Below, piece by piece: positions 9,713 through 51,492 of a stretch of 64,000 bases of DNA. This stretch comes from an uncultured Candidatus Saccharibacteria bacterium (lineage in GTDB: Bacteria > Patescibacteriota > Saccharimonadia > Saccharimonadales > UBA10212). The notes beneath the pieces were generated by a model, which was not told the origin of the DNA, ran no database searches, and was given only the letters and a program-made list of their open reading frames with translations. The position numbers and the translations under genes are program-made. The stretch is from positions 213 to 64,212 of the forward strand of contig CAZUXR010000001.1 of assembly GCA_964624785.1 (NCBI GenBank). The letters run 5' to 3'. How positions within the stretch are numbered: the stretch's first letter is position 1; each line of letters begins with the position of its first letter.

Positions 9713-9841
9713 CCCCGCACCTGAAACTGCTTTCAACCCTGTGGTTGAAAAGTTGCTCTGATACTTGCATGAAATTTCCTAGAATCGTTAGATTTTAGTT
9801 AATTTCGGTGCGAAGCAACATGAGCAGTTTCAGGTGCGGGG
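9713..9841. repeat. 129-nt stem-closed element, copy 2
   Basis: It has the same termini as copy 1 (CCCCGCACCTGAAACTGCT ... AGCAGTTTCAGGTGCGGGG) and the same length. The internal hairpin is TCAACC-ctgt-GGTTGA at 9733-9748. The element lies 125 nt upstream of the rsmH start. Confidence 0.85.
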
Positions 9842-10040
9842 TCTCTTACTTTTTCGCTTACGTTGTAAAAAGTCTTGTTAAGGGACTTTTTTAGGTGGAG
9901 TTTTGGGAGGTGTTAGTGAGAGAAAAATGTACGAGGGTTTTTAAAGGTGGTTACCCTATTGATCCACCTGCTGACTGCCGAATAGCTAATCTCGATAGTT
10001 CTTGTTTACTTACCAATTTGTTAAAGATCTACCTATCCCG

Positions 10041-10415
10041 CTATAGCGACTCGGCCGATTGCTTGCTCATTAGCCGCCAATATTGGCCAGCCCGAACAGC
10101 AACAACATCGCGTTCTATACCCGCGGTGTCCAGCAAATGCTGCGGCAACTGAATGCGGCCTTGCTTTTGGTCTATTCCGCCATCAGCTTTGCCCATCCTA
10201 AATTGCACGTTCAAATCAGCTGTTCGCTCATCCAGGATTTGTCCTGTAAGCTGCGGCTCGACCTGCAATTCCCACACTGCTTTGGGGTATAGGTGGAGAT
10301 AATTTTTTTTAAAACCTCTGGTTATAACTACTCCGTCTTCAAACTCAATCCTAAGTTCGGTCGGTATGGTCAACCGCCGCTTATCATCGAGTTTCCTTTC
10401 AAAGTAATCTCCCAT
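10041..10415 (-). CDS. mraZ: transcriptional regulator MraZ (tandem SpoVT/AbrB-like domains)
   Basis: Two DxxxR-type motifs (LDDKRRLTIP and IDQKQGRIQLP), 124 aa, first gene of the dcw cluster. Confidence 0.9.
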   Translation of the reverse strand: MGDYFERKLDDKRRLTIPTELRIEFEDGVVITRGFKKNYLHLYPKAVWELQVEPQLTGQILDERTADLNVQFRMGKADGGIDQKQGRIQLPQHLLDTAGIERDVVAVRAGQYWRLMSKQSAESL

Positions 10416-10465
10416 GGTTTTTCTACTAGTGGTTTTTGTTTTTAGTTAGGTAACCTGTTTTGGGT

Positions 10466-10513
10466 TACCCACATTTACCCACTGCCATGAATATACTACC
10501 CACCACTACCCAC
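10466..10513 (-). promoter_or_regulatory. probable MraZ operator: four direct GTGGGTA repeats (TACCCAC on the + strand)
   Basis: TACCCAC occurs at 10466-10472, 10476-10482, 10497-10503 and 10507-10513, with spacings of 10, 21 and 10 bp. The array lies 51-98 nt upstream of the mraZ ATG. Confidence 0.5.
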
Positions 10514-10636
10514 TTGCAAGTGTTTTATACTAAAAAAGCGCTCGCATACTGAGCACTTTTCCACAGGATCACAATTCCGCCCAGTATTACACAATATATG
10601 GCGTTTAGTACGATTTGGTAGACGCTATTGTGCAGA

Positions 10637-16370: not shown

Positions 16371-16414
16371 CAAATTATCATAAAATCGGCGATCGCCGAT
16401 TTTATGATAATTTG
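16371..16414. repeat. 44-bp perfect palindrome with GCGATCGC core
   Basis: CAAATTATCATAAAATCGGCGATCGCCGATTTTATGATAATTTG is its own reverse complement. It lies in the divergent carA / 16477 promoter region. Confidence 0.9.
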
Positions 16415-17407: not shown

Positions 17408-17710
17408 AAGGCAGGGTTTTTATATGCTCAAGGAACGCTTTTCCGGGTAGTGCTTCTTCTTTTTAGGGAACCAAACCTCAACCGACTGGAGCAAAAAAGC
17501 AATGAGCGATGATGACTACATCACAGAAGAGATCGATGCGATGCTCAGGAACTACGCAGCCTTGACGGGCAGGGTCAGGAGGTTCATCCGACGACTATTC
17601 CGAGCGCGCTAGGCGCTGCGCCTAACGCGCAGCGATACAATCAAAATCTCTCGCCAGGACGGTGCCGCCCCAAAAGCATCGTCCTGGCACAGCCACTAAA
17701 ACCCTGCCTT
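17408..17710. other. high-GC islet 2: 303-bp module closed by a 13-bp inverted repeat
   Basis: AAGGCAGGGTTTT (17408-17420) pairs with AAAACCCTGCCTT (17698-17710). The interior is GC-rich (nt 17581-17640 hand count 37/60) and has a GCCAGGACG...CGTCCTGGC hairpin. Confidence 0.7.
17502..17612 (+). CDS. possible 36-aa micro-ORF (acidic N-terminus, Arg-rich amphipathic C-terminus)
   Basis: MSDDDYITEEIDAMLRNYAALTGRVRRFIRRLFRAR. A GGAG lies 12 nt upstream. It is below the ORF-track cutoff and there is no homology evidence. Confidence 0.25.
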   Translation: MSDDDYITEEIDAMLRNYAALTGRVRRFIRRLFRAR

Positions 17711-33230: not shown

Positions 33231-33620
33231 TCAGGATTTATTGGGTTTGGAGTGATTTTTAAACCAGGCAGCGATTGCTGGAACATTCAGGTGTTCTACC
33301 GCCACCCGCACCGCAAAATCCTCCAGCTCTTTAGGCAATGCTACCGGCTTATAACCATTTCGCATCAAAAATAGCGACGCCAAGGTAATCGCTGAGCGCT
33401 TATTTCCGTCCACAAACGGATGGTCGGCAATGATAGAGCGTACGTAAACTGCCGCTTTTTCAAATACGGAGGGATACAGCTCCTTACCAAAAACATCTTG
33501 TGCCGGAGCCGCCAAGGCGGACTGCAGCCGTCCTTCATCGCGTACCCCGTGTGAGCCGCCAAATTCTTCGATAATCACATGGTGTAAGAGCAATAACTCT
33601 TCAATATCAAAATAACGCAT
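33231..33620 (-). CDS. doc: Doc (death-on-curing) Fic-fold toxin
   Basis: Fic/Doc motif HPFVDGNKR. 129 aa, 6 nt downstream of a small AbrB-type gene. Confidence 0.85.
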   Translation of the reverse strand: MRYFDIEELLLLHHVIIEEFGGSHGVRDEGRLQSALAAPAQDVFGKELYPSVFEKAAVYVRSIIADHPFVDGNKRSAITLASLFLMRNGYKPVALPKELEDFAVRVAVEHLNVPAIAAWFKNHSKPNKS

Positions 33621-33626
33621 GGTCAG

Positions 33627-33848
33627 TTATCTCTGCGAAAGGTTTTTAAGAGTTTCGCTGTATTGCTGCTTGAATTTCTCGTAGTCCGTCAGTAATTGTT
33701 CGTTTTTAGTTACTTTTTCTGTTGGCTGGAGCGTAACATCAACTTCGCTACCTGCCATAATACCGGCACTACGAGCCTCACGAGCCGGAATAGTAACCGC
33801 CAGGCTACTGCCAACTTTTATAACTTTTTGAATAGATTTAATGGTCAT
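33627..33848 (-). CDS. AbrB/MazE/SpoVT-type antitoxin
   Basis: VIKVGSSLAVTIPAREARSAGI is a swapped-hairpin AbrB motif. 73 aa, immediately upstream of doc. Confidence 0.75.
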   Translation of the reverse strand: MTIKSIQKVIKVGSSLAVTIPAREARSAGIMAGSEVDVTLQPTEKVTKNEQLLTDYEKFKQQYSETLKNLSQR

Positions 33849-35319: not shown

Positions 35320-35365
35320 CTTGATGAAAATTATACGCAATCACCTCCCCAAAGTACACTTAGCC

Positions 35366-35396
35366 TTCAAATAAAATAAGCGATAGGTTATTTTAT
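35366..35396. repeat. left copy of the 31-bp inverted repeat flanking the 35401 gene
   Basis: TTCAAATAAAATAAGCGATAGGTTATTTTAT is the exact reverse complement of 35982-36012. It is itself a hairpin (AAATAAAATAA / TTATTTTATT). Confidence 0.85.
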
Positions 35397-35400
35397 TAGT

Positions 35401-35985
35401 ATGGCTAAAAACGAAAGTACATCTGCGATTGTTGACGGAGTGTTAAGATTTACAGTGGTCGGTGGTTCAATCGCCGCCGGATTGTTCCTGCCTAACCTTT
35501 TAGTCACGCTGGATAAACCACTTAACAAATACTTTGCCCACCTTGATAAAAACGCTCGCGAAAGAGAAGTTCGAAGAGTGCTTAGCTATATGAAATCGCA
35601 CAAACTATTAACAGAAAATTACGAACACGGCATTGTGCTTACAGAAACGGGCAAAAAGCGCCTAGAACAGGCTGAGTTTGAATCACTTAAAATTAAACCG
35701 CTCAAAGAGTGGGATTATAAATGGCGTATCGTACTATATGATATCCCAGAAAATAAAAAAGTTGACAGACGAATACTGCAATTAAAGTTACAAAAGCTAG
35801 GGTTTAGACAGCTTCAACGCAGCGTACTGATTCACCCCTTCCCTTGTCGAGAAGTTATCGAATCCGTTTCCAACCACTACAAGCTAAGCGTGTATGTCAG
35901 CTATATAGAAGCAACTGGAATCGACAATCAAGCTGCCCTGATATCAAAATTCCAAAAAAGCTTACCAAACACATCCTTCAAATAA
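35401..35985 (+). CDS. membrane-anchored winged-helix / PaaX-like (Cas2-fold) putative regulator
   Basis: N-terminal TM, a wHTH-like segment (VLSYMKSHKLLTENYEHGIVLTETGKKRL), and WDYKWRIVLYDIPENKKVDRRILQLKLQKLGFRQLQRSVLIHPF typical of the PaaX-like middle domain. Confidence 0.5.
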   Translation: MAKNESTSAIVDGVLRFTVVGGSIAAGLFLPNLLVTLDKPLNKYFAHLDKNAREREVRRVLSYMKSHKLLTENYEHGIVLTETGKKRLEQAEFESLKIKPLKEWDYKWRIVLYDIPENKKVDRRILQLKLQKLGFRQLQRSVLIHPFPCREVIESVSNHYKLSVYVSYIEATGIDNQAALISKFQKSLPNTSFK

Positions 35986-36012
35986 AATAACCTATCGCTT
36001 ATTTTATTTGAA
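35982..36012. repeat. right copy of the 31-bp inverted repeat flanking the 35401 gene
   Basis: ATAAAATAACCTATCGCTTATTTTATTTGAA. It overlaps the stop codon of the 35401 gene. Confidence 0.85.
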
Positions 36013-36215: not shown

Positions 36216-36926
36216 ATGAATAAGAGCTCCGAAGAATCAGTAATACCCGTTCTTAAAATCATAGAAAAAGGCCGATCAGGGCACTTGGTCAGCCCCCAAG
36301 TTTTGCGACCAAAACGGAAGGAGGATGTTTCAAACCCCGAACTCGCAGCATCAATGGACCTTGCCGCCGCCATCGAGGCACTTAGAAGTGGTGATGTGAA
36401 AAAAGCAGAAGAAGACGCGAATAAAGCATACGGAGAGTATCATGCAGCATTTGCATTAAGGAGATCTACGACGGGTGACAGTGTTCCCAAATCTGGCGAC
36501 TTGTTGGGCTTAGCGGCTGCTAAAGATACTGTTTTAGCAACTTGGGAATTAGATCCAGAAGCGCACAAAGATCAAATAAAAAAGGCCCGCGACGAAGTGA
36601 GTGATTTCTTACTACTGGCACGTGAATTGCTTGGAAGTGAAGTAGACTCTGGAGATGTTGATCCCGAGTCTCCTGAATATGCTCAGAGACTAGCCGCTCT
36701 AGCGGTTTTGGAGGCCCAAACATATATAGCCGAGGGTAAGCCTGTGGAAGCATTTTGGACAATTGCACATACTACTCAAAATCTTAATGGCAGCACACCT
36801 GGGCACGTGGAAAATATCTTAAGCGAAGAAGCTACGATCTTAGCTATGATGGCAGAGCATGAAGGTACTACGCCTCCTCGATCAATTCGCTGCAATGGCG
36901 CACGAGTTCTAGCGCTAGCTGCTTAG
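36216..36926 (+). CDS. hypothetical alpha-helical protein
   Basis: 236-aa ORF. A possible TTGCGC-17-TACACT promoter lies about 70 nt upstream. No family recognised. Confidence 0.5.
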   Translation: MNKSSEESVIPVLKIIEKGRSGHLVSPQVLRPKRKEDVSNPELAASMDLAAAIEALRSGDVKKAEEDANKAYGEYHAAFALRRSTTGDSVPKSGDLLGLAAAKDTVLATWELDPEAHKDQIKKARDEVSDFLLLARELLGSEVDSGDVDPESPEYAQRLAALAVLEAQTYIAEGKPVEAFWTIAHTTQNLNGSTPGHVENILSEEATILAMMAEHEGTTPPRSIRCNGARVLALAA

Positions 36927-45707: not shown

Positions 45708-45869
45708 TTAGCCTCTGTTTTCTCCTACCCTGTCTCATAATTACTCCTGATATGCTACCACGGAAGTAGCGATGAGCCAATACCTTGAAGCCAAGACTCC
45801 TTGGTTGGTGGCTGAAAGGCCTGAAATTCATAATGCAGAGTTGAGAATGCGAAACTTCCGTCACCAACA

Positions 45870-45907
45870 AATCAAATAAAATAAGCGATCGCTTATTTTA
45901 TTTGATT
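45870..45907. repeat. 38-bp perfect palindrome with GCGATCGC core
   Basis: AATCAAATAAAATAAGCGATCGCTTATTTTATTTGATT lies between the S41 peptidase stop and the pyrG start. Confidence 0.9.
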
Positions 45908-45969
45908 CGTTTAATAGTTCAGGGTTCAGAGTTTTATGTTCTTGAACTTTAGCTTCTATAAACTCTCGG

Positions 45970-51420: not shown

Positions 51421-51492
51421 CTCCTCTTAGCTAGGCATAGCGAGTTTTGTAGTAATATTTATAACACAATGTTATAAATAGAGCAATTATAT

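Follow-up and report, generated by a model that had tools for sequence, protein, structure and literature searches.

A PaaX-like gene of a Saccharibacteria genome is bracketed by palindromes that are candidate sites of its own product, an arrangement recurring across the Candidate Phyla Radiation

In the lac (O1-O2), gal (OE-OI) and deo systems, an operator at the promoter is joined by a second, often stronger, operator hundreds of base pairs downstream, and looping between the two is possible. PaaX, the phenylacetyl-CoA-responsive regulator of Escherichia coli and Pseudomonas (PDB entries 8a39 and 3l09), has a winged helix and, after it, a Cas2-like domain in the centre. It represses its own promoter, Px, by steric hindrance of RNA polymerase; its operator, TGATTC-N27-GAATCA, is an inverted repeat spanning 39 bp, and the Cas2-like domain has been described as a dimerisation motif (PMC9493321). 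Here we describe a PaaX-like gene in a 64,000-nucleotide (nt) stretch of DNA from an uncultured Candidatus Saccharibacteria bacterium (contig CAZUXR010000001.1), a stretch we call the window. The feature under study, at positions 35366-36012, comprises this gene and a palindrome at each of its ends. To our knowledge, bacteria of the Candidate Phyla Radiation (CPR, or Patescibacteria) have tiny genomes with very few recognisable regulators, and essentially no regulatory circuit has been mapped in them. We infer that the two bracketing palindromes are cognate sites of the gene's own product, acting in autorepression and at a second, 3' site, and we rate this account at somewhat better than even.

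The segments 35366-35396 (TTCAAATAAAATAAGCGATAGGTTATTTTAT) and 35982-36012 are exact reverse complements of 31 nt each, in agreement with the initial annotation of this DNA. Both copies are themselves palindromes of the hairpin type, with the form AAATAAAATAA-N8-TTATTTTATT. The upstream palindrome (35366-35397, plus strand) reads AATAAAATAA-GCGATAGG-TTATTTTATT, with arms at 35370-35379 and 35388-35397 on either side of the core GCGATAGG (35380-35387). The downstream palindrome (35977-36012, plus strand) reads TTCAAATAAAATAA-CCTATCGC-TTATTTTATTTGAA, with perfect 14-bp arms at 35977-35990 and 35999-36012 around the core CCTATCGC (35991-35998). This copy extends over the gene's final codons and its stop codon (TTC AAA TAA), an overlap that reads the same in L001, one of the related loci described below. 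Because each copy is a palindrome, the pair is both an inverted repeat and a direct repeat (D1, 34 nt, 88%), and its orientation can be read solely from two asymmetric core positions. The 13-bp AGGTTATTTTATT segments annotated as terminal inverted repeats do occur in these two places alone, but they are a trivial consequence of each copy being a hairpin. The outer halves of the two copies do rebuild the palindrome upstream of pyrG, as had been noted, although that palindrome lies at 45872-45903 and not at 45870.

How exceptional are these palindromes? A search of the window with the 30-mer AAATAAAATAAGCGATCGCTTATTTTATTT, allowing up to 3 mismatches, returned three matches (35369, 35980 and 45874) compared to none in 100 shuffles. 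The whole 64 kb contains ∼5 to 7 strong palindromes versus 0 to 2 in shuffled sequence; the top four are all members of this core family. The RNA folds of the palindromes range from -12.6 to -27 kcal/mol (z from -5.7 to -8.8), with the downstream copy of the pair at -12.6 kcal/mol (z = -5.7).

We then asked about the bracket in other genomes. Of 261 relatives in species-representative genomes, most of the best 80 are labelled Saccharibacteria or other Patescibacteria; the loci examined, of up to 20 kb each, are numbered from L001 onward. Palindromes of 28 to 52 bp stand upstream and downstream of the gene in Saccharibacteria, Parcubacteria, Uhrbacteria, Moranbacteria and other lineages. At least 41 loci carry a cognate upstream and downstream pair, that is, two copies with at least 77% identity over 30 nt; the shuffled controls gave none. 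In the 38 loci with both palindromes called, identity averaged 0.81 within a locus versus 0.40 between loci, and 29 of the 38 pairs exceeded the 99th percentile of the between-locus values. Paralogue pairs in a single genome have different arms (L013/L026, L036/L082 and L067/L069). Across the family the arms are low in information, and the centre is kept as RCKA/TMGY, with C at ±3 in 97% of 182 half-sites. Loci used for comparison in which the gene is absent (L087-L097, ∼59 kb) had no such palindromes, and cognate copies elsewhere than at the two ends of the gene were rare, numbering 6 in the 774 kb surveyed. These data lead us to consider the palindrome-gene-palindrome unit, by a modest balance of probability, an old and vertically inherited feature of CPR bacteria with arms specific to lineage and paralogue. 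We found no published description of this arrangement in the searchable literature, nor any literature on PaaX in Patescibacteria or on GCGATCGC in Saccharibacteria.

A few loci depart from the regular pattern. In the complete genome CP064992 (L035), a second family copy at 9815-10590 is split in two frames and is probably a pseudogene; its palindromes have decayed, the upstream one being degenerate and the downstream one missing. In L065 (5092-5766), the upstream and downstream arms differ and the downstream palindrome resembles the pair of L079, so neighbouring modules or an exchange of sites may be involved. In L003 (6640-6700), ∼8 tandem copies of GGGCGTTT stand directly 3' of the downstream palindrome.

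The gene itself (35401-35985, plus strand) encodes a protein of 194 amino acids (aa) with a hydrophobic segment at residues 19-37, a predicted winged helix at about residues 50-95 and a PaaX-type Cas2-like domain at residues 102-175. The last of these was matched by PaaX_M (PF20803) with E = 5.3e-18 (65.3 bits versus a cut-off of 24). The full-length PaaX equivalog TIGR02277 scored 34.2 bits versus a cut-off of 264.55, with profile positions 62-162 alone covered, and no PaaX_C domain was matched in Pfam. By sequence, the winged helix drew sub-threshold matches alone (CggR_N, E = 0.01; HTH_12, E = 0.08). An AlphaFold2 model of the protein, built from 21 homologues (predicted local distance difference test [pLDDT] of 78), had E. 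coli PaaX (8a39) as its top PDB match (E = 2e-5, probability 1.00, 191 columns, template modelling score 0.44), followed by Rv0674 and then by many Cas2 structures, several of them at probability 0.9-0.99. A sequence search of the PDB returned one Cas2 alone (3exc, E = 0.034); the relationship to PaaX needed the fold search. The recognition-helix motif RERExRRxLxYMK is kept across the family, and the Cas2-like domain contains invariant polar residues (D105, R109, D114, E117, R123, Q139, S141, R150, E170 and D175).

A hydrophobic 19-mer (Kyte-Doolittle mean of at least 1.6) was present in 19 of the 21 homologues, with K and R richer after the segment than before it. The N-terminal segment is a probable membrane anchor in an orientation consistent with N-out, C-in; since the model falls below a pLDDT of 50 over residues 21-37, the case for an anchor is one of hydropathy. 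The initial annotation had called the product a membrane-anchored winged-helix, PaaX-like protein, and its PaaX-like part is borne out by both the PaaX_M match and the fold, with the winged helix weakly matched by sequence and the anchor read from hydropathy. The most economical account is that of a minimal PaaX-like DNA-binding protein with an anchor, a winged helix and a Cas2-like dimerisation domain, devoid of the C-terminal effector domain. The family comprises 288 clusters (50% identity) at E ≤ 1e-30 and 2794 at E ≤ 1e-10, and no name for it was found among the clusters.

The upstream palindrome spans positions -35 to -1 of the gene. In the window, a -35-like TTCAAA (35366-35371), a 17-nt spacer, a -10-like TATTTT (35389-35394) and 6 nt lead directly to the ATG. 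A TAnnnT hexamer ending exactly 6 nt 5' of the ATG was found in 18 of the 32 full-length orthologues, and several loci present TTGnnA-N17-TAnAAT-N6-ATG. No Shine-Dalgarno sequence was found for the gene. A -10 element that ends 6 nt before the ATG, together with this lack of a Shine-Dalgarno sequence, makes it probable from the sequence that the mRNA is leaderless. The upstream copy is usually the less perfect of the pair because its right arm must carry the -10 element; the downstream copy is more perfect and often overlaps the stop codon. These data document a sigma70-type, probably leaderless promoter architecture in CPR bacteria.

We propose that transcription would start at the A of the ATG, from the promoter inside the upstream palindrome. 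With a dimer on this palindrome, RNA polymerase would be kept off and the gene would be repressed by its own product, in the manner of PaaX at Px. The downstream copy could act as a second operator in cooperative or looped repression over ∼610 bp, and alternatively or additionally as a barrier to convergent transcription, and the cognate copy near pyrG would provide a third, occasional target. In the closest loci, the centre-to-centre distance between the sites is ∼605 to 619 bp with no common helical phase. We read the downstream palindrome as a probable second cognate site, which might be an auxiliary operator, a barrier, a terminator or a combination of these. What the sequences show is the anatomy, its conservation, the promoter geometry, the fold and the covariation; binding to these sites, repression and insertion of the N-terminus in the membrane are inferred from them. 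The palindromes are restricted almost wholly to both ends of this gene family, which supports the cognate-site reading. One of the two interpretations offered initially, in which the gene is flanked by sites of the regulator that it encodes, finds broad support as a description in the bracket of sites in at least 41 CPR loci, an upstream copy on the gene's own promoter and a PaaX fold; a conserved regulon of carA and pyrG is not supported.

Several observations weigh against autorepression at cognate sites. Where the two copies of a locus differ, the change has a mirror-image counterpart in the opposite arm: 21 changes are compensated, 3.0 ± 1.6 would be expected, and none of 2000 permutations gave more than 9. 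Perfect palindromes as long as 46 to 52 bp (L040, L061, L067 and L074) exceed a simple dimer footprint. The arms are barely informative family-wide, yet the recognition helix is kept, which leaves arm specificity unexplained. Some extra copies sit between convergent genes, a poor place for an operator, and what an operator would do at the gene's 3' end is conjecture. The three closest relatives by glycyl-tRNA synthetase (GlyRS, 83 to 85% identity) have no gene of this family beside glyS, and the pLDDT below 50 at residues 21-37 bears on the proposed anchor.

Could the palindromes be maintained by their structure, independently of the encoded protein? They would then be DNA cruciforms or hairpins, or RNA hairpins, whose copies are kept alike by gene conversion and which serve as a promoter-embedded supercoiling switch, a bidirectional terminator or an insulator. 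We regard this as unlikely, even though a dimer that reads half-sites independently does not predict compensation, and for this reason we retain both this alternative and the one that assigns the protein more than repression. The ∼3 compensated changes expected against the 21 observed, the perfect palindromes of up to 52 bp, the strongly stable RNA folds and the extra copies between convergent genes are all in its favour, and a fixed apex with a covarying stem is a pattern typical of hairpins. Covariation is also seen between the orthologous solo sites of L016, L021 and L027 (CT..AG, TC..GA and CC..GG). Downstream copies in several relatives (for example L001, L019 and L061) have the A-tract, stem and T-tract look of bidirectional terminators. 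However, a terminator scan of the window called neither bracketing copy, including the downstream one; a terminator would call for a G+C-rich stem plus a T run at 3' ends only, and one copy of every pair sits in a promoter. This upstream copy is outside the predicted leaderless transcript. Mismatches on the sense strand had no G.T bias (17 versus 18), which argues for a cause of the symmetry at the level of DNA, and we rejected a sense-strand RNA hairpin on the corresponding lack of G.U bias. A known RNA family was likewise rejected, as Rfam had no match for the palindromes. Structure as the sole cause also fits poorly with palindromes that are nearly confined to the ends of one gene family, are absent from related loci without the gene and retain distinct arms in paralogues within one genome. 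Quasi-palindromes tend to be perfected by template switching without selection on structure, so that template switching can symmetrise the arms unaided; both selection for a hairpin or cruciform and template-switch perfection are possible causes of the symmetry.

A further alternative keeps the protein at the centre but makes it more than a regulator: a structure-specific binder or nuclease acting through its Cas2-like domain, or a membrane tether like ParB/parS or Noc, with regulation of its own gene secondary. We consider this very unlikely. The N-terminal hydrophobic segment kept in the family, the many invariant polar residues in the Cas2-like domain and the weak but consistent Cas2 profile matches would agree with such a role, but most of the invariant residues are general PaaX_M signatures in a domain known from PaaX for dimerisation. 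The Cas2 models score under their curated cut-offs (TIGR01573, 20.5 versus 24.5; PF09827, 13.5 versus 23.8), the Cas2 matches in PADLOC are all sub-threshold, and no cas1 gene and no CRISPR or other repeat array was found between 33 and 38.5 kb in the window, nor a partner ATPase nearby. There are few sites per genome, those seen lie 2 to 19 kb from the gene, and no conserved target genes were found in the loci examined; clustering of sites near the gene cannot, however, be judged from loci of at most 20 kb. The gene also recurs beside the DNA-repair genes recO and xseA. A broader form of the idea, to which we assign a low probability, is a CPR-wide nucleic-acid system in which a membrane-anchored winged-helix/Cas2-like protein acts on hairpin or cruciform sites (invariant C-NNNN-G apex, covarying stems) and is used beyond ordinary repression. 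If true, such a previously undescribed system might serve site-specific DNA processing, module mobility or membrane tethering of chromosomal sites.

The other initial interpretation was an insertion of a 600-bp single-gene unit into a palindromic site with a 2-bp duplication. In a version that invokes site-specific recombination, the unit would be mobile and would have entered a GCGATCGC-type palindrome at its central AT. This would imply reciprocal hybrid sites (GCGAT/AGG and CCTAT/CGC), an unoccupied target in the 45874 copy and an excised circle with the junction AAATAAAATAACCTATAGGTTATTTTATT. The left half of the upstream palindrome joined to the right half of the downstream one does give the 45874 palindrome exactly, the downstream-left and upstream-right halves also join perfectly, and L083 has a similar reciprocal pattern. 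This arithmetic is correct but says no more than that the two copies are reverse complements of each other. The bracket is found throughout the family, and of 34 pairs 9 had inverted, 7 direct and 18 symmetric cores, a distribution that integration into a palindrome does not predict. Inverted and direct pairs being about equally frequent, the window shows one of two equally common states and not a rule of terminal inverted repeats.

Synteny bears on the same question. The order glyS (minus strand), PaaX-like gene (plus strand), recO (minus strand) is common to the window and five relatives (L001, L003, L008, L010 and L011), with position and orientation kept at a GlyRS identity of 43 to 67%. 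The gene is upstream of glyS and divergent from it, not downstream of glyQS as annotated. Clustering of neighbours revealed no conserved operon partner; the recurrent neighbours are the housekeeping genes recO, xseA and glyS, which counts against a mobile unit. Paralogous modules number two or more in several genomes, the Cas2-like domain retains D114, the invariant Asp of the YDIPE motif, and the three closest GlyRS relatives have no gene beside glyS, points that would suit a mobile unit. In one locus without the gene (L089), recO and glyS are ∼50 nt apart, but this empty junction contains no palindrome, so the uninterrupted palindrome proposed for relatives was not found there, a weak test at a GlyRS identity of 83%. 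Given its absence beside glyS in the closest GlyRS relatives, the module has disappeared from some lineages or, less probably, been acquired by others. A tyrosine recombinase (Phage_integrase) gene lies directly 3' of the module in L005 (6681-7601), which could be taken for insertion; none was found in the other loci examined. Searches of Pfam, NCBIfam, PADLOC and PHROGs found neither a transposase nor a recombinase domain in the protein, one weak relative alone was found in 2.9 million viral contigs, and solo cognate copies are rare. The shared synteny, the lack of a recombinase domain and the palindrome-free empty junction together make insertion highly improbable.

The neighbourhood varies in other respects. 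In four distant Patescibacteria (L057, L059, L060 and L075), the gene shares a strand with glyS and is directly 3' of it, and recO is ∼3.7 kb upstream; the gene thus keeps its link to glyS and recO in another arrangement. In the window the gene is monocistronic with glyS and recO as neighbours, and response regulator and exonuclease VII genes are among the neighbours of the family. Between the module and recO, the window has an open reading frame (ORF) of 236 aa (36216-36926, plus strand) that matched nothing in Pfam, PADLOC or PHROG; the spot is empty in L001 and L003, so the ORF is a lineage-specific addition. For GlyRS, the mechanical ORF start is the TTG at 35340; alignment with relatives indicates the ATG at 35322, with TATAAT 10 nt upstream (N-termini compared were MSANLEDIV..., MDKVSLEDI... 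and MSDVKLEDIV...). Just downstream of glyS, a Fic/Doc-family gene (33231-33620) lies directly 3' of a MazE/AbrB-like antitoxin gene (33627-33848), both on the minus strand, and the two (33231-33848) look like a toxin-antitoxin pair. Members of one Saccharibacteria clade, whose cores are of the CGGCCG type, have a KwaB-like (Kiwa defence) gene immediately upstream on the same strand, preceded by an RND/MMPL-type transporter gene; this was seen in L013 (8877-9890) and in five further loci that were not individually checked.

Two further members of the core family occur in the window. The solo palindrome at 45866-45911 (no strand assigned) has the same arms and a perfect GCGATCGC core, with 23-bp arms containing 1 mismatch; an S41 protease gene (3' end) adjoins it on one side and pyrG (5' region) on the other. 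Agreement of the arms at 28 of 30 positions (the 30-mer match at 45874) makes it a plausible candidate for an additional site of the gene's product. The palindrome at 16371-16414 (no strand assigned), 44 bp and perfect, lies where carA and a DDAH-like gene diverge. It has the same GCGATCGC core and different arms; it is a member of the core family that is not cognate by its arms, with only the 8-bp core in common. No second PaaX_M paralogue that might explain it was found within the window. Unrelated palindromes are also present at 51456-51480 (TATTTATAACACAATGTTATAAATA, at an ORF end) and at 17604-17630 (G+C-rich, GCGCGCTAGGCGCTGCGCCTAACGCGC).

Are carA and pyrG, upstream of which the initial annotation placed hairpins of the same family, parts of a conserved regulon? 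In L010 and L028, pyrG has no upstream palindrome, the carA site shares the 8-bp core alone, and no carA homologue was found in the relatives' loci examined. A conserved pyrimidine regulon was rejected, as the extra copies adjoin unrelated genes (NYN/MBL, beta-lactamase/Kelch, TIM/oxidoreductase, GDSL/YchF and NUDIX/DUF167); in the relatives these copies occur in tandem, divergent and even convergent gene arrangements. A dispersed REP-like repeat family was rejected on the count of 6 extra cognate copies in 774 kb, and a phage or defence origin on the lack of any PHROG match, the sub-threshold Cas2 in PADLOC and the single weak viral relative.

Autorepression at cognate sites would pair an unnamed, widespread protein family, often with several paralogues per genome, with candidate DNA sites that are evident from the sequence of each genome itself. 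The long palindromes with co-evolving arms are in addition a natural example bearing on whether such symmetry is maintained by structure, by template switching or by the symmetry of a protein.

The comparison with described systems places the locus closest to PaaX. The two proteins share the Cas2-like domain and, by the fold match, probably the winged helix ahead of it, and the 39-bp PaaX operator is comparable to the palindromes of 32 to 46 bp found here, one of which is on the gene's promoter. The protein described here differs in that it has no PaaX_C effector domain, ends at 194 aa and has an additional N-terminal hydrophobic segment. No paa (phenylacetate) genes were found among the neighbours of the gene, which is monocistronic. 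The entire candidate operator is palindromic around the RCKA/TMGY centre, and a second copy at the gene's 3' end is the rule. In lac, gal and deo there is also a second site, but here it coincides with the end of the gene for the candidate regulator itself, over the stop codon, and the arrangement is family-wide.

Repetitive extragenic palindromes and their REP-associated tyrosine transposases (REP/RAYT) are alike in having a single-copy gene between its own lineage-specific palindromes, occasional intergenic copies and paralogue-specific repeat variants. In contrast to RAYTs, the protein described here has a PaaX/Cas2-like fold and no HUH/Y1 fold, its repeats are not dispersed by tens to hundreds in the 774 kb surveyed, and the upstream repeat doubles as a promoter. 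The C-terminal domain shares the Cas2 fold and a YD(I/V) motif with the Cas2/VapD ferredoxin-fold nucleases, as its PDB sequence match to 3exc also indicates; here, however, the domain is fused to a predicted winged helix, scores under the Cas2 cut-offs and has no cas1 or CRISPR among its neighbours. Set beside these systems, the most economical account of the arrangement would be a PaaX-like autorepressor whose promoter lies inside one cognate palindrome and whose 3' end is marked by a second.

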